Positions 1,275 through 41,482 of a DNA stretch of 53,822 nt are shown piece after piece (within the stretch, counting starts at the first letter, position 1; every line of letters starts with the position of its first letter). The position numbers and the translations under genes are program-made. Source of the stretch: a virus (taxonomy: Duplodnaviria > Heunggongvirae > Uroviricota > Caudoviricetes); the IMG/VR virus record IMGVR_UViG_3300021256_000058, positions 1 through 53,822 of that record. One strand, given 5' to 3'. The notes under the pieces are model-generated. The model worked only from the letters and a program-made list of their open reading frames with translations. It was not told the origin of the DNA and did not search any database.

Positions 1275-3029
1275 TTATTCCTAAAATATTGTAAGCATTT
1301 GCTAATAATTTGAACTATGATATAATTGTCTAAATGGATCACAGAATTGTGTTTTGAAGCAATAAAAAGGATCAGATAAATTATTTAATAATGTGTCAGA
1401 AATTTCTTCATTTGTAAGTTTCTTAAAGATTATTTTAATTTCTTCATTTGAATATTTATTTTTACTTTTATATTGGCGCAAGGCTTGAATAATACGCAAT
1501 TTTCGTTGTAAATCATTTAGACCTGGAATTAATATGTTAAGATTATTTTCTATTGGATTTAAAATAGCAAAATTCATATCAAATAAAATATTTGAATCTG
1601 TAATTAAGAATAAATTATTCCAATCAGAACGCATTAGATTGCCTTCAAATACTCCATTATGTTTAGTATTTGAATTCATAATATTAACAATATTTTTAAA
1701 AGAAGCAAAAGCCTCTTCATCTTTATTATTTATTATGTCATAATTTAATTGATTTAATAATGCTAAATTATTAAACCAAGAACGTTTTAAATTTTTTGAA
1801 GTGAATTTAAAATTTTTACTTTTTTCAGTATTTAATGGTAAATTAGAAATAACTGTATGGATAGCATACATATTTGGACTTAAACTCATATCACAATAAT
1901 TAACTTTTAAACCTAATTTATTGCAAAAATTAATGTAATATTCATTTAATTCTTCATTAGAAATATCTCTGTTTTGTAAAAATACTTCAGAATTCCAAGG
2001 TACTATTTTTGAATTTAATAATATTGTTTCTGGGATATATGCTGCACCTGTGCAATTATTTAAATAATGAATAAGAAATTCTTCCGGGTTTTTATTACGA
2101 GATGGCATTTGATTATCAATAAAACTATTATATGATTTTATACCTTGATATAATTCTGTTAAAATACGCTCTAAAGCAATATCAATTACAGGGAAGCTTC
2201 CAAAATTAACACGAGCATTAGGAATATTTGGATTAATTAATATCGACGCTACAGCAGGTACTTTAAAATTATATGATAAATCTAATAAATAAATAGTATA
2301 TCCTAATTCTTCAAGATTTAACATAATTTGTAAGATATATTCATTATGAATAGACTATTTATCAATAATAAAAAATTCTTCTTGCGGTGACATATAAAAT
2401 TGCATATTAGCATAATGTTCCATAATTTCAGACAAACCTTGATTCAAAGCTTCTTGTATAGTATTACCAGCGCTCATGCCAATACTACAATTTACAGCTT
2501 GTGCAATTCTAGGGTCTAAATAAATAGTCTCGTCATGATTAAATCCTTTATATGGCAAACCAATTAAATTATTATTTGTAATTAAATTAAAGAAATCTTT
2601 AATTAGTTCTTCATTATTTAGATAATCATCAAAATAATGAGAAATAAAAGGATATTGATAAATTTCTTCAAATGTTATTTTTTTCTCCAGTGGACTAATA
2701 TAATAATTATTTTTATTATAACAAAGTTGCATCCCAAGTTCATTAACAATTGGGATACTGAAGTATTGAATGCGATTACAGAAACGCTCATAGCTTTCCG
2801 CAAATGCTGATGCTAGACTAAAAAGTTCAGTAGCACCTTTCCCATTGGATTTACCTACTAAGATACCATTATAATATACTTCTAATCCAGCCCACCAAGT
2901 GTTTGCTTCACTCTATTCACTAGCTGTAATTTTGTAGGTACATCCACGTTCAGTAAAAAAATCTTTTACAATTTGGATTGTATCTTCTGGAGAGCGTTCT
3001 TTAAATTTAATATCTAAATTAGTCATCAT
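1275..3029 (-). CDS. ycaO: YcaO-family protein, about 584 aa, read through 4 in-frame TAG codons
   Basis: Track ORFs 2355-2732 and 1302-2324 are in frame and separated only by TAG (TAGs at 2913, 2355, 1302, 1281). Joined protein has KERSPEDT, SNGKGATELFSLASAFAESYERF, SIGMSAGNTIQEALNQGLSEIMEH and ALERILTELYQG. True stop is TAA at 1275. Confidence 0.9.
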
Positions 3030-4020
3030 TTTTATCCTTCAATAATTGTATAAATTCTTTGACTGGGATATTATCAATACTATCATATAATATTTCAGCA
3101 TTTGATAATGAATTCCAAATATTATGATTAATAATTTGAGCAAATAATAATGTATCTAAATCAAACGTATATCCATATTTATCGTAAAAATATTTTGCCC
3201 CTGATAAAGAATCATTTTTATATTCTTTATTTGAAATAACAGTATTTAAATAATTTGTATACATTGATCCAAATACATCATAAATTAATGGCAAAAAAGA
3301 TTGTATTGGAGGATCAAAATTTTTTTGTATATTGGTAATTGCAAATTCTACATTTTTAGCTAATCCTATATTTTGATCTTTATAAATAAATTCACATTTA
3401 TTAAGTCTAGTAATACTAGTAGGATTATTAGTTTGTAAAATTAAAGGTTCTGCGGTTTCCATAATGCCATGTAGATTAAAATATTTATCTATAAAACGGC
3501 ATTGATGATTAAAACCAATATCTTCATTAGCTCTTGGATATTCAATATTAAAATGAATATTATATTTCGTTAAAAAAGACTTTCGATAAATTTTACCATG
3601 CATACGATTATGTGTCTCTGGAGTTTTATCAAATTCATCGCCATTATCATCTGGCTCTTCTAAATGAGCACATGAGATTACATTTAACGAAGGAGTCTTT
3701 TCCATAATATGAACAAATTTTTTTATTAATTGTGGCAATAAAACAATATCACCACAATCAATAAATGTTATGAATTCACTTTGAGATAAAATTAAACCAT
3801 ACTCTCTAACACCACCAGGGCCAACATTATTTGGACTTTTAATAATATGAATTGGATAGTATTTAGAGAACAAATTAGAAATACTCTCAAAGTCAATATT
3901 TTCAGTTGAGGCATCATCTATAATAAATACTTGCCAATTATAATTTATTGTGCCTAATGAGAAAAGAGTAGAGTATAATCCCTGTTCATCATTATAGCTG
4001 GGAATAATAATATCTAACAT
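3019..4020 (-). CDS. GT2 family glycosyltransferase
   Basis: LDIIIPSYN, IIDDASTE, NVGPGGVRE, FITFIDCGD, GKIYRKSFL, NEDIGFN. Confidence 0.9.
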   Translation of the reverse strand: MLDIIIPSYNDEQGLYSTLFSLGTINYNWQVFIIDDASTENIDFESISNLFSKYYPIHIIKSPNNVGPGGVREYGLILSQSEFITFIDCGDIVLLPQLIKKFVHIMEKTPSLNVISCAHLEEPDDNGDEFDKTPETHNRMHGKIYRKSFLTKYNIHFNIEYPRANEDIGFNHQCRFIDKYFNLHGIMETAEPLILQTNNPTSITRLNKCEFIYKDQNIGLAKNVEFAITNIQKNFDPPIQSFLPLIYDVFGSMYTNYLNTVISNKEYKNDSLSGAKYFYDKYGYTFDLDTLLFAQIINHNIWNSLSNAEILYDSIDNIPVKEFIQLLKDKNDD

Positions 4021-4329
4021 TTATACAGCTAATCCTTTCTCTTCGCACCAATCATTTTTTGCTTTTTGTCCTAAAATATTGAAAATATGAGTATTGTCAA
4101 TTGATTGAAATGGATAAATGTTATAGATATAAAATCTATCCATTGAGCCATCAGCATACCAAATCATGCGTTCAACACTTGCAGTATTATTACGTACGGG
4201 AGCCCGCATAGTTAAACAAATATATGGTAAATTTAAATCTTTAATTTCTTGGACAGTCACAAAATGATTAAAATCATCTGCATGAGTTCCCCCGTTAGGA
4301 AACATTTCATTAATTTTCTCCCAAGCCAT
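4021..4329 (-). CDS. Hypothetical protein inside the rSAM/YcaO operon
   Basis: 102 aa ORF with GGAGGA SD, abutting both neighbours. Confidence 0.7.
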   Translation of the reverse strand: MAWEKINEMFPNGGTHADDFNHFVTVQEIKDLNLPYICLTMRAPVRNNTASVERMIWYADGSMDRFYIYNIYPFQSIDNTHIFNILGQKAKNDWCEEKGLAV

Positions 4330-5737
4330 ATTCTTCCTCCACTCGATTCATTATCGCTAAAAATTCTTGGGCTCTAGTGTATCCAGGCTCATATGGAGAG
4401 ATAGTTTTCCATATTTCATCGATCCCATATTCTTTTAATTTATGGAAAATATGAGAAATTTTATGATAATAAAAATTACATACGCTTTCAATAGGAACAA
4501 AAGGATCATCATTCGTTTCTAATTGAGATCCAAAACAACCTTTAATACAAACTGGATTAAATGGGCAAGTATCACATTTTAATGAACAAAGATTATTATT
4601 CATAAATAAAATACGTTCTGCCATATATACATTATTAGAAACAATATCAGTAATTTTATCATTTTCAACTTTAAAATGACCATACAAATATTTTTTATAA
4701 GCAGTACGATGGCATGGGCAAATAGCTAAATCACCCAACCTTACGGTTAATTCTAATGATACAGAACATCCAGGAAAAGAATCTGCCATACCTGGAAAAT
4801 AAGGAATATATCCTGTTAATGTATCTCTTGCTCGATAATTAGGGTCCATAATTAAACTATAGGCTAATCCTTCTGTACTATATTTGCTTAAATACCGTTC
4901 TAATAAATAATCCATAAATTCATTATAATGTTTTATACTTTCTTCAGTCCAATTGTTATTTCGGACTTCTAACATCATAATACATTGATCGGGATCAATA
5001 TCGTATTTTTCACATTCTTCTACCCACCATTTATGATTTTCTATCCATCGGTCTACGTCAATTGCTGCTACCATTGGATGAAAATAAAACTCATGATGTT
5101 TCGCAAATAAAAACATTCTTTCATAAAAAGCATCATTATTAACACTAGCATCATTATGTGGGCGCGCTTGTTCTTCAATAATTTTTCCATCAATTGAAAT
5201 AGAAAAAGCAATTCTAATATTTTTATTAGCAAATTTATGCAATCTTTGTTCTATTCTACCAGTTTGGACTGGATCTTTTAAAAAAGAACAATTAGACGGA
5301 ATCATTATAAACTCAGTTTTAAAACCTTCTAAAATCTTTTTATAAATTAAATCAAGAACATCTAGGCCAAATTGAGCATGCCAAATTTCGCCTGTAAATA
5401 GATCAATTCTTGGTATGTACATATCATTTTCAATAAACCAATCAAAAAGAATGTTAAGATTATGAAGAATTGTTTCAGGATTATTACATTCTTGAGGATA
5501 TAATTCATTACCATGCTTTACTAAATAACAATATTCACAATGTTGATTACAAGTAGATGTAATAAATAGTTCTAATCCAATATCGTCTATTAAGCTAAAA
5601 TCACGAACATCAGAATCTTCTCTTAATTCTTTATTTTTCCAAATCTTAAAAAAACGTTCTTCTAACATCATTTTTAGCATCTTATCATGTTCTTCTTGAT
5701 AGATTTCTTTTCTATTTAAAATTAACTCATTATTCAT
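4310..5737 (-). CDS. Radical SAM enzyme with SPASM domain
   Basis: CNQHCEYC motif, SISIDG, C-terminal C...GDLAICPCH...CDTCPFNPVCIKGC. Start moved to ATG 5737, which has a GAAGGAG SD. Confidence 0.9.
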   Translation of the reverse strand: MNNELILNRKEIYQEEHDKMLKMMLEERFFKIWKNKELREDSDVRDFSLIDDIGLELFITSTCNQHCEYCYLVKHGNELYPQECNNPETILHNLNILFDWFIENDMYIPRIDLFTGEIWHAQFGLDVLDLIYKKILEGFKTEFIMIPSNCSFLKDPVQTGRIEQRLHKFANKNIRIAFSISIDGKIIEEQARPHNDASVNNDAFYERMFLFAKHHEFYFHPMVAAIDVDRWIENHKWWVEECEKYDIDPDQCIMMLEVRNNNWTEESIKHYNEFMDYLLERYLSKYSTEGLAYSLIMDPNYRARDTLTGYIPYFPGMADSFPGCSVSLELTVRLGDLAICPCHRTAYKKYLYGHFKVENDKITDIVSNNVYMAERILFMNNNLCSLKCDTCPFNPVCIKGCFGSQLETNDDPFVPIESVCNFYYHKISHIFHKLKEYGIDEIWKTISPYEPGYTRAQEFLAIMNRVEEEYGLGEN

Positions 5738-7112
5738 TAAATAATTGCTCTCCTTCTGGGCGATAAATATAATCAATTGCTCCATTTAAGAGTAATTTAA
5801 TTATACCATGATCTTGTAATAAAATAGATCCTGTCATATTAAAATTATCTTTAATACAAGTAGATACCCCATGAGCTTGAATAATTTGTGCAGCTCTTAC
5901 TGCCTGCTCTTCTGAGACATATTTTTCATCTATTAATCCGGCCATTGCTAACAATACTATTTCATTTGCAATAATAGCCAATCTTGCGCTAGCATTATCA
6001 ATATTAAAGCAATGCATTGAATCGCTAAATGTTTTATAGTTTTGCTCATTTAATAATAAATGAATAGGACGGTCCGCAATAAACTCATCAAAATTAATAG
6101 TTCCATCAGTAATACGTTTTGACTGCTCGGCCAATGTCTTATATTCTAGAGCCATATTAGTATATCCTTCATGACAAGAAGATACTAAATTATTAGGCAA
6201 AAGACCGATAGAAGTAGTTCCTACACCGCAAGTATATCCTGGTTGATGAACTGTTATATATGAAGGAATATAACAATCGCGTAAAGAATCATATGGAGTT
6301 ATTTCATGATAATATTCAAAATAGTAATTAGTATCATTTTCATCTTCTATTTCTCGGCATCTCTTACAAAAGTCAGCGAAATATATACCATCTGCTTTTG
6401 TTACTGGACTTGGCACAGCAGTATTTGGTACTGGAGGAGCAATTTCTATATTATCAAAGTTATTTTTTTCCCTAAAAGGTCTTATAAAAGTATCTTCAAA
6501 AAATTGATAATATTCAATAATTGATTCTTTTGTATTTAATGCATATAAACTATTTAAATCTAATGTAGGTTTAATAGTTACTACAAAATGAATATTCGGC
6601 CCTATATAATCACTTAACATTTCATTCATTTTATAAAAATTTTCTAAACATCTTTTTGTAGTGCCTTTGCCTCTATTGGTATCATTTATATACTCTGGGC
6701 CATCACAAGACAACTATAACTGAAATACAAAATCCCTATAGTCATATTTATTAAATTGCTTAATTAAACCAAATAATTGATCTGTCCAAGTTGGGTAAGA
6801 AAAATTTGTCGATGAATAAAAATGATAAAAATAAGGATATTCTTCTATAATTTGATTTAAAACATGATAAATTCGGTCCATATGAATAAATGGTTCTCCG
6901 CCCCAAGTTTCTACATGAGATAGCTGCCCTTTATTTGGGAACCATTTTCTAATTTGTTCGATATAATAATCACCCTAAAAACTTTCTTCTAACTTTTGAT
7001 CTATTTCTAATAATGCTGGATTTTTGTCAATACCACAATATCTGCACTGTAAATTACAAATACCAGTAGGAAAAAGTGTTAGAGTATTAAATTCATTTTT
7101 AAATTTTTCCAT
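5730..7112 (-). CDS. Radical SAM enzyme, about 460 aa, 2 in-frame TAG codons
   Basis: Reading through TAG at 6714 and 6975 extends the track ORF to MEKFKNEFNTLTLFPTGICNLQCRYC...WGGEPF...STNF...LSCDG. Partial SPASM/twitch motif CGVG...SSCH. Confidence 0.9.
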
Positions 7113-7131
7113 ATTGTTTCAAACCTTTGAA

Positions 7132-7941
7132 TTAAGCATAATTTGCTTTTGTAGAATTACTACAAAAAATATCAATTACAGTACCTTTACTATTTGTTCC
7201 AGAACTATGTGTACCTGAGCTATGTGTACCTGAGCTATGCGTACCATCGGATTTACTTACGTTAGATTTATTTCCATTAGATTTATTTCCATTAGATTTA
7301 CTGCCATTGCCATGATTACCATTTGATTGTGAACCAAAATTATTAGAGCCTTCTGGGCTATAAGAAATATAAGCTCCTACACTTCCAAAATGATTGCTTC
7401 CAAAATTGTTAGTTTGATTAAAATGGTCCCAGTTAAAACTAGTAAAACTATTAGCAACTCCATTGGTTCCATGGCTTCTACCGCCACTGCTTTCATTACC
7501 ACTACTGTGCTTGCCACTACTTTGGCTACCGCTACTATGTGAACCATTACTTTTTGTAACATTACTCTTTGTGACATTACTCTTTGTGACATTACTACAA
7601 GTACCAGAACTATTGGTAGCTGTATTTCTACATTTTACTGCACCTAAATAAGTTGCAGTAGTAGCATTAAACATTGCGGTACCAGTACCACTCATAATTA
7701 ATTCATTTTGATTAACAAGTGAATAAACTGGATAAGATGCATATTTTAAATACGCATCAGCTTTCATAGCAGTTAATTTATTAAAAAAATCATTTGCGTC
7801 AGCAGTTTCAGCTTTTTTATTAGCACTAGGGATGGCTAATGTAGCCATCCCTCCGCCATAATTGGAAATAATAGTATTTAAACCTTGATACCAAGCTTGT
7901 AAATCTGAAGATAATAAAGGTGAATTTTGAGTAGTCGCCAT
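7132..7941 (-). CDS. Ser/Asn/Gly-rich pentapeptide-repeat protein, candidate substrate of the adjacent modifying enzymes
   Basis: About 100 aa non-repetitive N-terminus, then two blocks of xS(N/S)(G/V)x repeats. 15-nt tandem DNA repeats near 7204-7300 and 7548-7595. Confidence 0.75.
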   Translation of the reverse strand: MATTQNSPLLSSDLQAWYQGLNTIISNYGGGMATLAIPSANKKAETADANDFFNKLTAMKADAYLKYASYPVYSLVNQNELIMSGTGTAMFNATTATYLGAVKCRNTATNSSGTCSNVTKSNVTKSNVTKSNGSHSSGSQSSGKHSSGNESSGGRSHGTNGVANSFTSFNWDHFNQTNNFGSNHFGSVGAYISYSPEGSNNFGSQSNGNHGNGSKSNGNKSNGNKSNVSKSDGTHSSGTHSSGTHSSGTNSKGTVIDIFCSNSTKANYA

Positions 7942-7944
7942 ATA

Positions 7945-8343
7945 TTATTCCTCATTTATATTAGTATTCTCTTGCATAGCGGCATTTATTTCTGATTTGC
8001 CTTTATTAAAGGCTAGATACTCTTCAACTCCATTATTTTCTGGTAGTGATACTATATTATATGATAACTCAATGGGTGTAATTTGTAAAGTGTTAACCAA
8101 AGTATTATTTTTATACCAATTAACAGAATGAATTGGAGCATTATTAATAGTAGCTGCAAAATTTTTTAAAGTTAAAGTTAAGCTGGAAGACTCAGTATTA
8201 GCGATTTCATGTGTTTTACGGATACTAATTTGTTCAAAAAATTGATTATAAATAGTACCTAACTAATATTCTACATTTACCTTGTCATCGGTAAAAACAA
8301 TAGGGTTACTATCATTTAATAAATAAACTTCTATTTTATCCAT
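7945..8343 (-). CDS. Hypothetical protein, 132 aa, 1 in-frame TAG
   Basis: AAGGAG SD, MDKIEVYLLND..., TAG at 8263, TAA at 7945. Fills the gap in the operon. Confidence 0.75.
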
Positions 8344-8405
8344 AAAAGCCCTATCTCCTTTCTATTATTCTTAATAATTTTAAAAATTAGAATAATAAAA
8401 TTAAT

Positions 8406-9326
8406 TTATTTTGGCAATTTATATGTATTTATATTAAAATTATATAAATCAAAGGAACGCTGCCACATATCTAAATAATAAATGACAGCAAATATATATT
8501 CAGGTTTTACCATATATTTTACAAAGTTAAGTATAACTTCAATAGGTGGTAAAGTACGTCCTTCTAATTTAAAATGATTGAATCCATTGTTAGTATACTC
8601 TACTAATTCTTCTCTTGTAAAATTATTTTTATAGTTAGTTACACCAACAGTACAAGCCTTAATACCGCATCCTGTTAATTGATAATGTTTTCCATAAGCT
8701 AAAGAAAACATACTATTTAAATCATAATGTCTTTTGCGTGTAGGGCAACCTGGAGGACAAATAGCATTAATTAAAAATTCGCATTTAGGACGGAGCTCTG
8801 TTGGCACAGATTCTAGCGCAGTTTTATTTTTATTTAAATTATAATCCCAACAAATAAATTTATAATTTTTATGTAATTCAGACATAAGAGCATCAACTTG
8901 TGTTAAGCATTTAGTTGTAGAAGAAATAAAATTATATTGAGAATAATTAGTACGAAGATATTCTTCTAAAACTGGTGAATTAACAACAATTTCATTCATT
9001 TCATCTGCGCATAATGATAATACTAAATTATTAAAACGATCATGACAATCATGAGGTTGAATTAAAGTATTTGTAAAAATTAAACGCATTGGAATATGAA
9101 AATAATTATTATATATATCTTTTAATAGCTCAATATCTTCTTTAGTAGCATGAGATTGAGTAGGAAAAATTCTACCTCCATCCCATGTACAAAATTGAAA
9201 ATTTCCATAGACAGCATTTATATCTATATCATCATAAAAATATTGAGGCTCATTTTGCAATAAACTTAAAAAAGGAATAATAACAGAATAATTTTCCCAT
9301 AATCCAGGCAAAGCAAAATACATCAT
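8406..9326 (-). CDS. Peptidase-U32-like Fe-S protein
   Basis: WDGGR, NAICPPGCPTRKRHY, C, HFKLEGR (resembles the U32 KIEGR motif and Cys cluster). Confidence 0.55.
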   Translation of the reverse strand: MMYFALPGLWENYSVIIPFLSLLQNEPQYFYDDIDINAVYGNFQFCTWDGGRIFPTQSHATKEDIELLKDIYNNYFHIPMRLIFTNTLIQPHDCHDRFNNLVLSLCADEMNEIVVNSPVLEEYLRTNYSQYNFISSTTKCLTQVDALMSELHKNYKFICWDYNLNKNKTALESVPTELRPKCEFLINAICPPGCPTRKRHYDLNSMFSLAYGKHYQLTGCGIKACTVGVTNYKNNFTREELVEYTNNGFNHFKLEGRTLPPIEVILNFVKYMVKPEYIFAVIYYLDMWQRSFDLYNFNINTYKLPK

Positions 9327-9329
9327 GAA

Positions 9330-10121
9330 TTAAAAACTCCTATAAAATTTATAAAAATCTACAATAAATTCAGATTTTATAAAAAACTCAACAATAAAGT
9401 CTCGATCAGTTTCTTCAATATAAAAATTTTGATAACCTAATTTTTGTTGCAATTGTAATTCTGTAAATATATCTGTAGAATAATCTAATCTATCACAATT
9501 ATTTAAAATGCTTTGATTAGAAAAATTAATTTGATAATTTTGTTCCTGTTTAATACATTCTAAATACTGTTCATATGTACAATGAGCACAAGGATGTCCA
9601 AGGGTTATTATAATATTCTTTTCATTATTGAATTCTTGCAATGCATTTAATTGAAAAGGTTGTTCTATTAATTGAATATCATTAATTGATTTATAATCAA
9701 TATATGGACTTATTAATTCACTTAGAATAAAATAATATCCAGAATAAACATCTTTAATTAATGGAATAAAATCTGGATTAGAAATCCGTAAGTAATGTCC
9801 TTGATTCTCAAATACCTTTAAAAGCATTTTGATATGATTATCATATAATATATCTTCATTCGTTAAGGACAAATTACTAAAATCAAAACAAAAAGGAATC
9901 ATATTGTTTTGAGAAAATTTTATAATATCATCATATGTCATAATAGTGGGATCTAAATTTGTATTTTTATCTCCATTCCAAAAACTAAAAGGGAAATTTC
10001 CTCTAATACATTTAATTGTAAATGAAAATTTCATTTTGTCTGGGTTATCGCGTTTAAAAGCTTCTAAACTATTATATAAATGTAAATTAGTATAAAAATC
10101 AGATAAAATAAAATTTGGCAT
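9330..10121 (-). CDS. Divergent paralog of the adjacent U32-like protein
   Basis: GNFPFSFWNGD aligns with GNFQFCTWDGG. CAHC...C...C cluster. Confidence 0.5.
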   Translation of the reverse strand: MPNFILSDFYTNLHLYNSLEAFKRDNPDKMKFSFTIKCIRGNFPFSFWNGDKNTNLDPTIMTYDDIIKFSQNNMIPFCFDFSNLSLTNEDILYDNHIKMLLKVFENQGHYLRISNPDFIPLIKDVYSGYYFILSELISPYIDYKSINDIQLIEQPFQLNALQEFNNEKNIIITLGHPCAHCTYEQYLECIKQEQNYQINFSNQSILNNCDRLDYSTDIFTELQLQQKLGYQNFYIEETDRDFIVEFFIKSEFIVDFYKFYRSF

Positions 10122-10241: not shown

Positions 10242-11795
10242 TTACTTAATACAAGCATAACGCTCGGTATTAAGCTTCTCCATCATGAGGTCATAGCCAG
10301 TCTTACCTGACATAATGGTCTCAAAGATAGCAGGAGAAAAACCGCTAACAAAGGAGATAGCTCCCTGTCCCAGCATAGGGATATTATTCTGACGAGCCTG
10401 GACATTCCAGAAAATCAGATGAGGCATCTGATATCCGTGAGCAGCCCACTTCTTTGCGATACCCTCCATAAGAGTATCAGTCTCTGCGGTATTTACTGAA
10501 GTACGACCCCAGGAATACCCGTGGCCACGAGCCTGGTCGAATTCCATATCAGAGATGATAATGATATTCTTAGGCAGGTCGTCCTGAGAACAGTTGTTGC
10601 GAAGCGCAGTATTCAGCAACAGATCGAAAGTAGCTTCGATATTAGTGTTCTCGCAGAGATTGGTGCGATAAATACGCTCAACCTTATCGCAGAAGTCTAC
10701 TCCAGAAGTCTCAATCAGCTGAGGACGAGAACTAAAGGAAACATAATGTCCTGCGAAAGGCCCCTTAGCCTTTTCTGCGCAATACAGGCCAAGAGAGATA
10801 GCAACATTGATAGGAGCTGCCGCATCGCTTCCAGTCATAGAGCCAGAAGTATCAACAACAGCAAGGCCGTTGAAGGAAGCTCCATTGAAATAATCCGCAA
10901 GATTATCCCAATACTTATTTGCCATCAAACGCTGAGTGTCATCCAGAGGAACATCCTTGCGGGAATAGCTCCAGGAGTAACGAGAGCCGTACATTACCTT
11001 AACAGCTTCAGATACGCACTCATAAGGATAAAGAGTCTTTGCATTAACCTTCTTAGTGGTATCCTTAGCGAAGTCTGCATAAGTCTGCACATTGCGCTCA
11101 GACTTTTCACGCTCAAGATCATGACGAGCAAAAGCGTTCTTATAGATCATGCCTGCGCGAGAAGGAATCTTATCGAATTCGATCTCGTCCCAACGGTTCT
11201 CAGACATGAGGCGCTCAACAATGTTGATCTTCTCACGCAGAATCGCAAGAGTCTTACGATACTGCTTATGAGTCATGCCGAGGTACTCGCGAGTCTTGGC
11301 AGCCAGCTTACGGCTATCGCGACTTGAAGTATTTTCAGACTTCATCCACTTTGCGAGCAGGGAAGGAGTCTTGCACTGTACATCCAGCTCAAGCTGAGAC
11401 TTAATCAGAGCCAAAGCATCAGCCTCCAGAGGAGTACCAATAAAGGTATATAGATCATCCCAGCGGCCAAACTCAGGGACATACTTCATATTGCGACGCA
11501 TTGCTGTAGTATCATGATTCGCCAGATAGTGAATTACGACACGGAAGAATCTGCGCTCGCCCTGGCCTCCGCGCACGTCGCGCAGGTAAAACAGGCACTT
11601 AAGTGCATATACAGGGTTTTCAGCATATGCATCCAGAAACAGCTTCAGAACATCAGCATCGCTTCTGGTACGATATGCTCCGCCCATCGCAAACAGATCA
11701 AGCAGATAGCTACGAGTAGTCTTGTGAGCTACAGCTCCATTTTCAGTACGAATATAGTTGGTGGAATTCTTCAATCCATTTATAAAAGTATTCAT
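10242..11795 (-). CDS. DUF2828-family Ro60/TROVE-like protein with C-terminal vWA domain
   Basis: TENGA, RDVRGGQGERRFF, GRWDDL, LLAKW, vWA MIDAS VVDTSGSM and IISDMEFD. Own promoter at 11862-11890. Confidence 0.85.
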   Translation of the reverse strand: MNTFINGLKNSTNYIRTENGAVAHKTTRSYLLDLFAMGGAYRTRSDADVLKLFLDAYAENPVYALKCLFYLRDVRGGQGERRFFRVVIHYLANHDTTAMRRNMKYVPEFGRWDDLYTFIGTPLEADALALIKSQLELDVQCKTPSLLAKWMKSENTSSRDSRKLAAKTREYLGMTHKQYRKTLAILREKINIVERLMSENRWDEIEFDKIPSRAGMIYKNAFARHDLEREKSERNVQTYADFAKDTTKKVNAKTLYPYECVSEAVKVMYGSRYSWSYSRKDVPLDDTQRLMANKYWDNLADYFNGASFNGLAVVDTSGSMTGSDAAAPINVAISLGLYCAEKAKGPFAGHYVSFSSRPQLIETSGVDFCDKVERIYRTNLCENTNIEATFDLLLNTALRNNCSQDDLPKNIIIISDMEFDQARGHGYSWGRTSVNTAETDTLMEGIAKKWAAHGYQMPHLIFWNVQARQNNIPMLGQGAISFVSGFSPAIFETIMSGKTGYDLMMEKLNTERYACIK

Positions 11796-11878
11796 ACGCA
11801 TTCTCCTTTTTCTCATTGTATCCTCTTGGACAAGAGGATAATTTATTTATTTACTATATATATTATATAATATTTTTA

Positions 11879-14369: not shown

Positions 14370-14521
14370 TGGCGGCGGAGCTGGGGTTCGAACCCAGTCA
14401 TACCGGTTTTTGGTGGAGCGCCTCAGTACCGCCCTGAAATCTTCAATACTAGCTTCTTCCTTGCTATGTTCTTTACACCATCGCCCCAGAGACCGGCGTG
14501 CTACCGTTACACCACTCCGCA
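14370..14521 (-). tRNA. Interrupted amber-suppressor tRNA(CUA) with a 77-nt tRNA-Ala-like insert (14411-14487) in the anticodon loop
   Basis: 5' half ...CCGGT-CTCT, insert GGGGCG...CGCTCCACCA, then AAA-ACCGG...T arm...GCCA. Removing the insert gives the 7-nt loop CT-CTA-AA. Confidence 0.7.
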
Positions 14522-14597
14522 TGGCACCCCCACTTCGGAATCGAACCAAGATCTAGAGGGTTAGAGCCTCTCGTGCTGACCATTACACCATAGGGGA
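14522..14597 (-). tRNA. Amber suppressor tRNA(CUA), Gln-type body
   Basis: AGAGG-CTCTAAC-CCTCT, weak 1:72 pair, G73. Loop differs by one base from the local tRNA-Gln(CUG) loop CTCTGAC. Confidence 0.92.
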
Positions 14598-14693
14598 ATA
14601 TATTTGATGTAGGGGGCCCCTTGTATACCGGTTGCCCCTACTTCCGGCCGCCCTTACACATTTCGGTTTTGCTTATGGTTAACCGCAAACCAC

Positions 14694-14784
14694 GCCAGTG
14701 TGCTTTCACGCTAAAAGATTGCCGCATGCCCCACAATCCACTCATTATAGGATGGCTGCTTCTAAGCCCACCTCCTGGCTGTCT
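14694..14784 (-). ncRNA. Mimic of the 23S rRNA L11-binding region (helices 43-44)
   Basis: Minus strand reads AGACAGCCAGGAGGTGGGCTTAGAAGCAGCCATCCTATAATGA-[hairpin insert]-AGCGTGAAAGCACACTGGC, against the bacterial 23S sequence AGACAGCCAGGATGTTGGCTTAGAAGCAGCCATCATTTAAAGAAAGCGTAATAGCTCACTGGT. Confidence 0.85.
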
Positions 14785-14824
14785 TAGAAGTCTTAAACAG
14801 GGTTTCCATTCCTGATGCTTCATA

Positions 14825-14912
14825 TGGCGACGGGAGAGGGACTCGAACCCCCAAGGGCTTTCAGACCCCGACGGTTTTCAGGACCGCGTCCTCATCCAGC
14901 CGGATTCCCGCC
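14825..14912 (-). tRNA. tRNA-Ser(UGA), atypical D arm and C33
   Basis: GCGGT-CCTGAAA-ACCGT, long variable arm, GCCA. Confidence 0.85.
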
Positions 14913-14927
14913 ATATCAAAAGGGTGA

Positions 14928-16604: not shown

Positions 16605-16627
16605 TTATAAAACTCCTAAATATTATT

Positions 16628-16743
16628 ACAAGACACATTGTGTTACATTCACTCTACCCAACTGAGTTACTTACGCCAAGCGCGTGAGACAGGAATTGAA
16701 CCTGCGACATAATGTTACCATTATAATTAGCTGTATGTGTCTT
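16628..16743 (-). ncRNA. ACAGCAA-handle RNA copy 3, YrlA-like permuted tRNA module
   Basis: AAGACACAT-ACAGCTAA...T arm GCAGG-TTCAATT-CCTGT, loop-closed acceptor CTCACGC/GCGTAAG, D arm ACTC-AGTTGGGTA-GAGT...ATGTGTCTT. Confidence 0.8.
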
Positions 16744-26909: not shown

Positions 26910-26986
26910 TGGTGGAACGGAAGGGATTTGAACCCTCAACCCCCTGAGTGCAAATCAGGCGCTCTCCCAATTAGAGCTACCGCCCC
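26910..26986 (-). tRNA. tRNA-Ala(UGC)
   Basis: CCTGA-TTTGCAC-TCAGG, G3:U70. Confidence 0.95.
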
Positions 26987-34173: not shown

Positions 34174-35799
34174 TTAGAACCAAAGATGAGTCTCTTCAAT
34201 AGGACGAAAATAATTATCCTGATCATTTTCATCCCACAGTCCGAATGCTCGGAATCCACTATCGGTCAAATCTTCACGATCAACCCAATAGACAGTCGTA
34301 TCAGGGGCAACTTCCTTAGACTTGATAGAATCATATCCATCAATAAGGAAATTTTTTGCACGGTAAGGATAATCACCATCCAGGTCGCAAATGATGCTTC
34401 TATAGCCATAGTCGGCTTCATTCATAGCTTCCGGAGTGTCATCATTTGTACGCCGCAGATATACGGTACGTGAATCTTCTACAGCAATCGGTTCATCATA
34501 GTTAAACTGATTCTGATTGAAACGTTCTGCGTAGCACTCTTCGCAATAACCCTCATCATCTACCCAGAACAGGTCATCTTCACGATGGAAATGAGCGCCG
34601 CAGCAGGAGCAAGTATAATATTCGCCGCAATCTTCGCAGTAGAGAGCTTCCTCACAATCAAAGCTATTGCTAATACTACCACACCACATGCATTCGCTTT
34701 CGCCAGAATAGCACAGGCTATATTCGTCATGGGCATTCAGCTGATTCATGACACGAGCAGTATTAACCAGCATATGGTGGCTGCGGTCCATGGTACCGAA
34801 ATCATTGTACATGGTCTCAGTCCAAAAGGCAAAAGTAGCTCTGTTACCATCACGCAGTTTAACTGAACCGCAGTCATTAAGGTAAATGGAATCGTAATCA
34901 TACTCGTGATCCCAATTCTTTTTAGCCAGATCACGCAGGAAAGCAAGAACTGCATCAACCAGAGAAACAGACTGATAAGGATAACCCTTAACTTCGGAAA
35001 TGACATCCTTGTTCACGATGAACAGCTCACGCCATTTCTTGGAGTTCCAAGTCTCATCCCGATAACCGGTTTCCAGAGACATTTCTTCTTCCGCAGTCAG
35101 ATATGCAACAATCGCAACAGGGGAATTCATCATTTCGACAGTGCCACGACGATAGCAGCCACTGTTCTTCCAAGACATGCAGGATTCCCAGTTGCACGCA
35201 TTATCGCTCATGGTCATATAGTCCAGAGGATGAATGGACAGGCAAAGATTACCATGCAGATGCTTCTGGTTCAAAAGCATAGAATGCTTCAGACGGAATT
35301 CTTCAAAACCGTCAATATTGTACATCGTGGCAATCTTACCGAGGGTCTTGATGGGCTTGCAACCGCAATTTACCTTAAACAGCTTGCCGTCCTTACCGGT
35401 GAAGCTAAAGCTGTTATAATCCATCTTATTTTCAGCCAGAGCATCAGTAGTGATAAGCTCCATCAGAGAATAACGTACAGGGATCAGAGTCGGCTCGCTA
35501 GAAATCGCGTTCAGGAAGCTACGCCGAAACGTGTACATTTCTCCGGGGTAATCCATCGCCTCGCCGATCTTTCTTTTCACGTCATCCACATCGAGAGGAA
35601 TCTCAATATCTTTGGAGACGATCAGTTCGCCGCCAAACAGCTTAAACAGATCGCGCTTATTGGCATCCCAGATACGCAGGATATAATCAATGTCAGCACG
35701 ACGGTGAGAAGGACCGTCCGCATCATTCAGGCGTCCATACGCAGAAATATAATGGGACATCATTTCCTTTTCATGATTAGTCAGTTTTTCAAGCAACAT
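34174..35799 (-). CDS. Hypothetical protein with HPLD/WxSC motifs and Zn fingers
   Basis: SIHPLDY...NWESC...WNSKKWR; paralog of 29448-30833. Confidence 0.8.
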   Translation of the reverse strand: MLLEKLTNHEKEMMSHYISAYGRLNDADGPSHRRADIDYILRIWDANKRDLFKLFGGELIVSKDIEIPLDVDDVKRKIGEAMDYPGEMYTFRRSFLNAISSEPTLIPVRYSLMELITTDALAENKMDYNSFSFTGKDGKLFKVNCGCKPIKTLGKIATMYNIDGFEEFRLKHSMLLNQKHLHGNLCLSIHPLDYMTMSDNACNWESCMSWKNSGCYRRGTVEMMNSPVAIVAYLTAEEEMSLETGYRDETWNSKKWRELFIVNKDVISEVKGYPYQSVSLVDAVLAFLRDLAKKNWDHEYDYDSIYLNDCGSVKLRDGNRATFAFWTETMYNDFGTMDRSHHMLVNTARVMNQLNAHDEYSLCYSGESECMWCGSISNSFDCEEALYCEDCGEYYTCSCCGAHFHREDDLFWVDDEGYCEECYAERFNQNQFNYDEPIAVEDSRTVYLRRTNDDTPEAMNEADYGYRSIICDLDGDYPYRAKNFLIDGYDSIKSKEVAPDTTVYWVDREDLTDSGFRAFGLWDENDQDNYFRPIEETHLWF

Positions 35800-40618: not shown

Positions 40619-40908
40619 TTGGCTTTCCTCTCTTTCTGTCTCAACCGAGCAATAGTTGCTTCCATACGAGCTTTATTATATGACTCGGCTTCCGCGACAC
40701 GATCTGGACGAGCTTTTCCTTCTTCCAAGAACATCCGGCCTTTATGAGCCAGCTCAGAGAGTTCATCGACCAGGGACCGCAATCCCTTTTTGCTGTCGCC
40801 ACATCCATCATAATCTGCTGCAAGATACATTATAGACATAAAACAGTCTTCAGCACAATCTTCAACAGACCATATGGTGTCACTTTTTTCATCGTAATAG
40901 GCTTTCAT
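40615..40908 (-). CDS. Hypothetical protein
   Basis: ORF track, overlaps both neighbours. Confidence 0.7.
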   Translation of the reverse strand: MKAYYDEKSDTIWSVEDCAEDCFMSIMYLAADYDGCGDSKKGLRSLVDELSELAHKGRMFLEEGKARPDRVAEAESYNKARMEATIARLRQKERKAK

Positions 40909-41482
40909 TCAGCATCCCCTTTTTGATAATTTCATACAGGAAATCCTGTTCGACAGGGTATTCTTTTAAATTATAATTGCGCCGAATAATTTCAGCCAGT
41001 TCAAATTTATCAGAATTACTGGTAAACCAATAAATATTATCCCAATCGCTTCGACCACCCGGCTCATCATATGTAGGCATCTCGAATTCCTTATATAATC
41101 TTTCAATGACTTCAGAGGGGACTTTACGATTCCGACGAGCATTTCTTTCTTTCATCGTTGCAATGTCAGAACGAATGCAGATTAAAGTATGCTCATCATA
41201 TTCAGGGAACCAGTTGAGAAATTCCTGTCGATCACTAACATAAGGGGCATTAGTGTCTACGATTACATCCTGCCCCAGCTTATAAGCTTCATGAATGAGC
41301 TTAAAGAAAAGCTGCCATGCCTCGAACTTATTCTCTCTACAAGTATCCGTACCATTATAAAACGCATAGCAATCGTCAATACTAATGCGTCTCAGCTTAT
41401 GCAGGCGTGCAAAAATCGCTGCGAAAGTGCTTTTGCCAGCCGCAATATCTCCACACAATAAAAACATCCGAGGCATGGTCAA
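40889..41482 (-). CDS. P-loop kinase, polynucleotide-kinase-like (AAA_33)
   Basis: CGDIAAGKST, ISIDD, VIVDTN, ERNARR.RKVP. Confidence 0.85.
   Translation of the reverse strand: MTMPRMFLLCGDIAAGKSTFAAIFARLHKLRRISIDDCYAFYNGTDTCRENKFEAWQLFFKLIHEAYKLGQDVIVDTNAPYVSDRQEFLNWFPEYDEHTLICIRSDIATMKERNARRNRKVPSEVIERLYKEFEMPTYDEPGGRSDWDNIYWFTSNSDKFELAEIIRRNYNLKEYPVEQDFLYEIIKKGMLNESLLR

Follow-up and report, generated by a model that had tools for sequence, protein, structure and literature searches.

A tRNA-shaped insert in the anticodon loop of a phage amber suppressor tRNA gene, and nested inserts of the same kind in other phages

The gene for an amber suppressor tRNA (anticodon CUA) is split in this phage by a 77-nt insert that itself has the shape of a tRNA (Table 1). 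The split gene lies on the minus strand at 14370–14521 of the window, by which we mean the whole 53,822-nt stretch analysed, inside an array with 33 intact tRNA genes. The Rfam tRNA model spans the insert (match 14373–14521), ARAGORN called a 77-nt intron when introns were allowed, and it scored the exons joined in silico as a 75-nt tRNA; this outer tRNA has the canonical cloverleaf of an amber suppressor, reads CUA, and shows a mismatch of U1 with C72 and a G at position 73. A first-pass annotation made from the letters alone had described such an insert at 14411–14487 in a normal cloverleaf, and both programs bear this out, on the minus strand. The short D-like arm it saw in the insert is present. 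The T-like arm has the described 5-bp stem (5 of 5 pairs) and 7-nt loop, but the loop sequence, GGCGGUA, is non-canonical; of the described Ala acceptor stem, G3.U70 stands, but 6 pairs form instead of 7 (A7.G66 is a mismatch). The middle arm ends in a purine-rich 14-nt loop. The split gene is not an assembly artefact: L001 carries an identical copy, possibly from the same source, and contigs covering the entire gene were also found in runs X3 and X8, from two other studies. No DNA contig cleanly without the insert was found in X3, X6 or X8, and no close relative of the locus among INPHARED phages. The presence of a tRNA-shaped insert in a CUA tRNA gene is confirmed.

Table 1. Coordinates of the split suppressor gene, its parts and associated features (window positions unless stated otherwise).
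Feature	Position	Strand	Remarks
5′ exon of CUA (amber suppressor, Gln-type) tRNA	14488–14521	−	tRNA positions 1–35: U1.C72 mismatch, D arm, anticodon stem, loop up to U35
tRNA-shaped insert, 77 nt	14411–14487	−	after U35 of CUA tRNA
Insert acceptor, 5′ strand	14487–14481	−	
Insert D-like arm	14478–14466	−	4 bp
Insert middle arm	14464–14443	−	no anticodon
Insert T arm	14438–14422	−	
Insert acceptor, 3′ strand	14421–14415	−	
Insert ACCA end	14414–14411	−	
3′ exon	14370–14410	−	A36–A38, anticodon stem, 5-nt variable loop, canonical T arm, G73, CCA
Intact CUA suppressor tRNA	14522–14597	−	adjoins split gene upstream, no spacer
23S rRNA L11-binding-domain look-alike	14690–14787	−	helices 43–44 and an added hairpin; E 2.5e-8; upstream of both suppressors
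Pnk-like kinase (AAA_33)	40889–41482	−	candidate end-healing enzyme
RNA ligase gene	177431–178657 of the genome, outside window		Rnl5-type

We compared the five registers for the insert whose removal would leave a 7-nt loop. Insertion after position 35 alone gives the insert an acceptor with 6 of 7 pairs, a T stem with 5 of 5 and an ACCA end; the remaining four registers leave 1–4 of 7 acceptor positions paired. The earlier claim that a 7-nt loop with CUA returns when the insert is excised exactly as a tRNA holds up, and this is the sole workable register. When loop and insert were shuffled (mononucleotide), 3 of 1,000,000 shuffles equalled the observed fold, counting any register. ViennaRNA did not favour the nested fold (z 0.55): the nested model has −39.0 kcal/mol against −45.6 for the MFE structure, with inner pair probabilities of 0.0–0.4. 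Thermodynamic folding also misfolds the joined tRNA.

The phage genome comprises 181,822 bases (~182 kb) with terminal repeats, and the runs in which it occurs are metagenomes from animal guts. In-frame TAG abounds in the late genes on the plus strand (57 in the 3099-aa tape-measure gene), and in most replication genes it is absent or infrequent. Under table 15, coding cover of the late genes increased from 0.25–0.84 to 0.90–1.0. In alignments among four relatives, TAG was most often matched by Q (at 13 of 48 non-TAG positions), and from its sequence the phage is predicted to read TAG as glutamine. The terminase is nearest to those of Firmicutes phages and phAss-1, with 43% identity to the latter; a crAss-like identity was rejected on the basis of this terminase affinity and of the tape-measure protein, DnaE, gyrase and CHAP endolysin. 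Tandem CUA tRNA pairs without introns occur in L007, L041 and L051. Elsewhere in the genome, a low-GC block at 1275–10121 of the window (minus strand) resembles a phage peptide-modification cluster: it contains genes for YcaO, radical SAM and glycosyltransferase proteins, and some of these have in-frame TAG; 45000–60000 of the genome, with a GC-skew switch and repeated small winged-helix and 5′-nucleotidase-like genes, is likely near the origin and early region. A 541-aa ORF at 34174–35799 matched no family.

Inserts of this kind are found in many other phage tRNA genes. A search based on 80 loci with the downstream protein, followed by pattern scans and the tRNA arrays of 39 genomes, yielded 66 distinct inserts of 44–135 nt in 51 clusters (<80% identity). 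Over these clusters, insertion is after position 34, 35 or 36 in 19, 26 and 6 cases, 47 of 51 end in CCA, 47 of 51 are preceded by U, and the acceptor and T stems stay paired while the D/anticodon part varies freely; such percentages are inflated, because the 66 inserts were pre-selected for an acceptor with ≥6 of 7 pairs and were partly pattern-found (loci L093–L214 by a pattern demanding an inner T loop and CCA, the main pattern also demanding A37). A scan that used the outer tRNA only found 44 short inserts (<140 nt) in the arrays of 39 phage genomes, 41 of them with the top-half fold. The other three are a weaker 71-nt case (G015), an 86-nt insert (G043, also L040) whose 2-nt overhang fits neither of the cuts proposed below, and a likely false call (G080); five distinct long inserts (198–445 nt), group I-like or false, were set aside. 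At one extreme the insert is a complete tRNA (L111 and L172 have an Asn tRNA within Lys, L136 a Gly tRNA within Asn), and at the other it is a 44-nt minihelix. Some end in CCU, CCG, CAA or CUA at the same length, and two end at the discriminator. The hosts are U34 tRNAs in 31 of 41 nested genes. We counted 10 distinct split suppressor genes (four further output rows were chance), and all 10 share the insertion point after U35; boundaries among relatives are not variable, as would have told against splicing, but fixed at the insert's own tRNA ends. G3.U70 occurs in 6 of 9 aligned close relatives and in 8 of 51 clusters overall, which leaves little weight to the Ala identity first given to the insert.

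Tertiary covariation between D loop and T loop (G55 with loss of GG) was unsupported, GG being present in 5 of 15 G55 inserts versus 22 of 42 U55 inserts. In cellular genomes (18 of 64 parts scanned), 5 of 120 pattern matches are nested genes, and three of these are MAG contigs and likely binned phage; matches in Saccharibacteria were chance, inside a protein gene. Further unusual tRNAs turned up in these scans. The outer tRNAs of L011 and L009 have a non-canonical T loop like that of the window insert and a D loop without GG. Four tRNA-framed RNAs (L041:178–316, L051:386–524, L069:2533–2649 and L074:764–883) carry 34–52-nt inserts that are not tRNA-shaped. CUA suppressors at L024:5883–5973, L034:2875–2965 and L051:4264–4360 have a long extra arm whose loop resembles a CUG anticodon and might be grasped by the enzyme that charges Gln.

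We then asked if the inserts are under selection and if intact copies accompany the split genes. In an alignment of nine close relatives, both partners have changed in 12 of the 20 pairs, such compensatory changes occur in each of the four inner helices, and 91% of cells are paired; 2 of 500 shuffles reached the observed pair count in this alignment, in which one row's acceptor is shifted by two columns. An intact copy with the matching anticodon was missing for 39 of 41 nested genes within the 20–54 kb read (for G032, the entire genome), and this held even where the array had 23–32 tRNAs; the two exceptions are both suppressors, in the window phage and in G002. Intact Lys-UUU is present in 9 of 13 other arrays versus 0 of 8 arrays with a split Lys-UUU, and intact Gln-UUG in 8 of 13 versus 0 of 8, although counts across carriers are not independent, given the relatedness of the genomes, most of which were covered only partly. 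G001 and G032 are complete and circular, and TAG recoding is heavy in them (77 TAG in an ORF of 2530 aa, 50 in one of 1893 aa); no second CUA gene was detectable in either whole genome. Their inserts are unrelated (45%) and sit at the same site. Likewise, L009 and L011 have exons 96% identical and inserts 48% identical at one site, L269 and L284 combine inserts 88–91% like that of the window with exons 92% like the intron-less gene of L010, and intron-less counterparts are 91–92% identical to the exons of related split genes. A related insert is also present in a Lys-UUU gene. These mismatches between insert and exon identity indicate that inserts were gained, lost or swapped at a fixed site.

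The closest precedent that we found, in a literature search with subscription journals mostly outside reach, is the 'enigmatic' tRNA introns of Lak megaphages, among them a Thr(UGU) intron possibly encoding a tRNA (Devoto et al, 2019, PMC6784885), cited again by Crisci 2021 (PMC8346664). Like the window insert, these are short non-group-I inserts in phage tRNA anticodon loops with a tRNA-like domain, and four intron types in the accessible part of that paper end in an acceptor/T-arm-like domain (by eye, PMC6784885 Table S6). They differ in having a ~30-nt AT-rich leader and no CCA, whereas the window insert starts at acceptor base 1, ends in CCA and lies in an amber suppressor; the accessible text of PMC6784885 gives no mechanism. 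The accessible parts of PMC12386605, PMC10607447, PMC7824862 and 10.1101/2021.08.26.457843, on suppressors and phage RNA repair, describe no suppressor split by a tRNA-shaped insert. We file the insert as a variant of the Lak-type enigmatic intron, which would be an intron class of its own if the route is proven.

Other known elements fit less well. Group I introns of bacterial and phage tRNAs occupy the same place in the anticodon loop, usually after U, and in these phages Leu tRNAs too carry introns of group I type. The insert was nevertheless rejected as one: it has 77 nt and no catalytic core (P3–P9), it ends in ACCA and not in the terminal omega-G (47 of 51 clusters end in CCA), and it had no Rfam group I match up to E 5, in keeping with the remark that it is too short. 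Archaeal and eukaryal tRNA introns (bulge-helix-bulge, TSEN, RtcB or Trl1) are short as well, and are cut out by proteins and ligated, as is proposed for the insert. Their canonical site is 37/38, whereas the inserts lie at 34/35, 35/36 or 36/37, with 0 of 51 clusters after 37, a register that breaks the stems of the window insert; and the conserved signal here, unlike theirs, is the insert's own tRNA top half. No splicing endonuclease was found among the Pfam matches of 155 ORFs, and the genome gave no match to EndA or RtcB. In T4, Pnk/Rnl1 repair also has a phage ligase seal a broken anticodon loop, and Pnk-like and phosphoesterase genes are present here too, but here the break is programmed by a genomic insert and the ligase is Rnl5-type. 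A CUA tRNA and late-gene TAG read as Gln are shared with TAG-recoded gut phages (phAss-1, Lak, crAss-like), according to the accessible parts of PMC10607447 and 10.1101/2021.08.26.457843. The insert is not a tmRNA, despite its Ala-type end (G3.U70, A73, CCA), as it has 77 nt, no tag frame or pseudoknots and no ARAGORN tmRNA or Rfam match; nor is it a decoding tRNA-Ala, since it lacks a 7-nt NGC loop, middle arms carry purine-rich loops of 10–14 nt, and a normal tRNA-Ala lies at 26910–26986.

Taken together, we consider it probable that the split gene is spliced to a CUA tRNA, and we lean, with less assurance, towards an intron removed by RNase P and a cut after CCA, followed by ligation. We propose that the insert is removed from the RNA because it resembles a tRNA precursor. 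Cleavage by host RNase P at the first base of the insert would leave a 3′-OH on exon 1, and an RNase Z-type cut directly after CCA would leave a 5′-phosphate on exon 2; both ends would then be joined, without healing, by an ATP-dependent RNA ligase of the phage, to give a Gln-type tRNA reading UAG. In its substrates RNase P reads the stack of acceptor stem and T arm together with a 3′ tail, and its cut leaves a 3′-OH on the upstream piece, RNase Z leaves a 5′-phosphate on the downstream piece, and ATP-dependent ligases join such ends. The insert ends coincide with mature-tRNA ends and the acceptor stem, T arm and 3′ NCCA are retained; this conserved set is what RNase P recognises and supports its involvement. 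For the second cut, B. subtilis RNase Z in Co2+ cut directly after CCA in 80% of mapped sites and cut CCA-less substrates after the discriminator (accessible text of PMC7479834), and these two positions match both insert end types. The same text reports that in Mg2+ CCA slows this enzyme ~1500-fold versus CCA-less RNA (PMC7479834). Ends in CCU, CCG, CAA or CUA are poorly explained by a CCA-reading enzyme.

As for the ligase, the suggested check for RtcB or Rnl enzymes turned up an RNA ligase (Rnl5-type) and Pnk-like genes, but neither RtcB nor Rnl1 had a match in the phage genome, which also encodes several (metallo)phosphoesterases, a PIN domain and many unknown genes (the Pnk-like kinases number two). 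Rnl5 ligases are described as nick sealers that are feeble on single-stranded RNA (accessible text of PMC4408790), which counts against joining by the ligase of this phage. A ligase-like gene is present in 21 of 21 near-complete carriers tested (17 PF09414, many below the family cut-off, and 4 T4 Rnl1), but this is not discriminating because ligase genes are equally common in a comparison pool (PF09414 in 25 of 34, some carriers included). The excision and ligation first proposed finds support in the fixed boundaries and site, covariation, intron-less counterparts, sole-CUA phages and ligase and Pnk genes; spliced RNA was not seen.

One or both cuts could instead be made by a phage nuclease that measures the acceptor/T-arm shape, with splicing still to the CUA tRNA, and we regard this as a minority reading worth keeping. 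The genome offers metallophosphoesterases, a PIN domain, Pnk-like kinases and many unknown genes, but no candidate was identified among them, and what is conserved in the inserts is what marks an RNase P substrate, with boundaries at mature-tRNA ends. In its favour, the position-76 boundary is kept even with CCU, CCG, CAA and CUA ends, and the ~30-nt leader that precedes the tRNA-like domain in Lak introns (by eye, in the accessible part of PMC6784885, Table S6) means that RNase P cannot make the 5′ splice cut there.

In five RNA runs, examined as contigs, no spliced joint was found at the site; this is weak evidence, because the nearby intact tRNAs are also uncovered. RNA-library contigs from X15, X18 and X19 hold the insert unspliced. 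The X15/X18 contig (identical in both) starts 17 nt inside the outer 5′ end and an X19 contig 16 nt inside the insert, each near a predicted RNase P site, although contigs cannot show ends; one X19 contig has UCA in place of the inner CCA. That contigs are only unspliced would also suit an unspliced or half-processed RNA acting as a decoy, a two-headed tRNA mimic that absorbs anticodon nucleases and other tRNA-binding defences. The U34 hosts (31 of 41) and the U before the insert (47 of 51) point the same way, as they overlap with preferred targets of Cas13a, given as Lys-UUU, Glu-UUC, Gln-UUG and Thr-UGU in the accessible text of PMC11042736. We think this unlikely: a decoy has no need for an exact 7-nt loop with U33 and a purine at 37, and would not be expected to take the place of the intact copy, as happened in 39 of 41 cases. 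The preference for U, found with a main pattern that required A37, equally suits an origin at nuclease cuts, and the overlap with Cas13a targets fits such an origin or a protective role.

Mis-repair by a ligase, later fixed in DNA, was an alternative raised at the outset. As an origin it is plausible, and mature ends suit an RNA-level event: a whole tRNA may have entered a nuclease-cut anticodon loop, become fixed in DNA, then passed from one tRNA gene to others while eroding to little beyond a minimal top half. As a dead accident that inactivated a redundant second suppressor, it agrees with the intact CUA gene of the window phage and G002, but we give it very little credence, given the compensatory changes in all four inner helices, the intact exons, the lack of intact copies for nearly all nested genes, the two phages G001 and G032 with no CUA gene but the split one, and persistence across strains from separate studies. 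Weakest of all is splicing in another register to Leu-CAA or Gln-CUG, which follows ARAGORN's automatic intron calls (CAA in the window, CUG in L008) and two loops that the sequence permits, and is most improbable as these registers break the insert's stems, intron-less counterparts read CUA, the unrelated insert of L009 rules out CUG, the array already holds intact CAA and CUG tRNAs, and the short variable loop and G73 of the outer tRNA are not Leu-like.

Several further RNA elements neighbour the split gene. The 23S look-alike is found in 12 IMG/VR loci, 11 of them with it within ~200 nt of a CUA tRNA, 10 of these being one near-identical lineage; it is also present in L267, L284 and L300, and absent around the split genes of G001 and G032. 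An L11-binding rRNA fragment expressed in E. coli reportedly titrates L11 and weakens UAG termination, and the look-alike could be another component of a code-switch module. At 14825–14913 (minus strand) lies an odd tRNA-Ser(UGA)-like gene that ARAGORN missed and that best fits the tRNA-Sec model, below threshold; similar unannotated stretches occur in Streptomyces and Synechococcus phages. A 524-aa RNA-binding protein (phrog_850, DUF2828; 10242–11816, minus strand) is encoded at the array edge, and a stretch that overlaps the tRNA region (16627–16743, minus strand) weakly matches Y RNA (YrlA); the two possibly form a Ro/Y-type repair platform.

The conditional or timed suppressor first suggested does not apply to the window phage, where the adjoining intact CUA tRNA precludes a strict switch, and most inserts are in ordinary tRNAs; a strict timed switch could operate in G001 and G032. 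The accessible text of 10.1101/2021.08.26.457843 reports that ~60% of TAG-recoded phages show no suppressor, so a sole split suppressor need not be functional. Standard tRNA scans miss split suppressors or miscall them as Leu or Gln, and two complete genomes hide theirs as a split gene, which bears on the suppressor-less ~60%. More tentatively, and as a possibility that we would not yet favour, the inserts may form a distinct class of intron, in which tRNA shape is the splicing signal, tRNA-maturation nucleases excise and a phage ligase seals; the ligase would gate the late-gene code switch where the sole suppressor is split (G001, G032), and split genes would account for some suppressor-less recoded phages. 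If true, unexplained phage tRNA introns would be explained by a splicing route made only of tRNA-maturation and repair enzymes, testable through two predicted cuts and one ligation in a 152-nt RNA. Such a route may allow phages to time the code change, or to shelter tRNAs from anticodon nucleases until they are needed.
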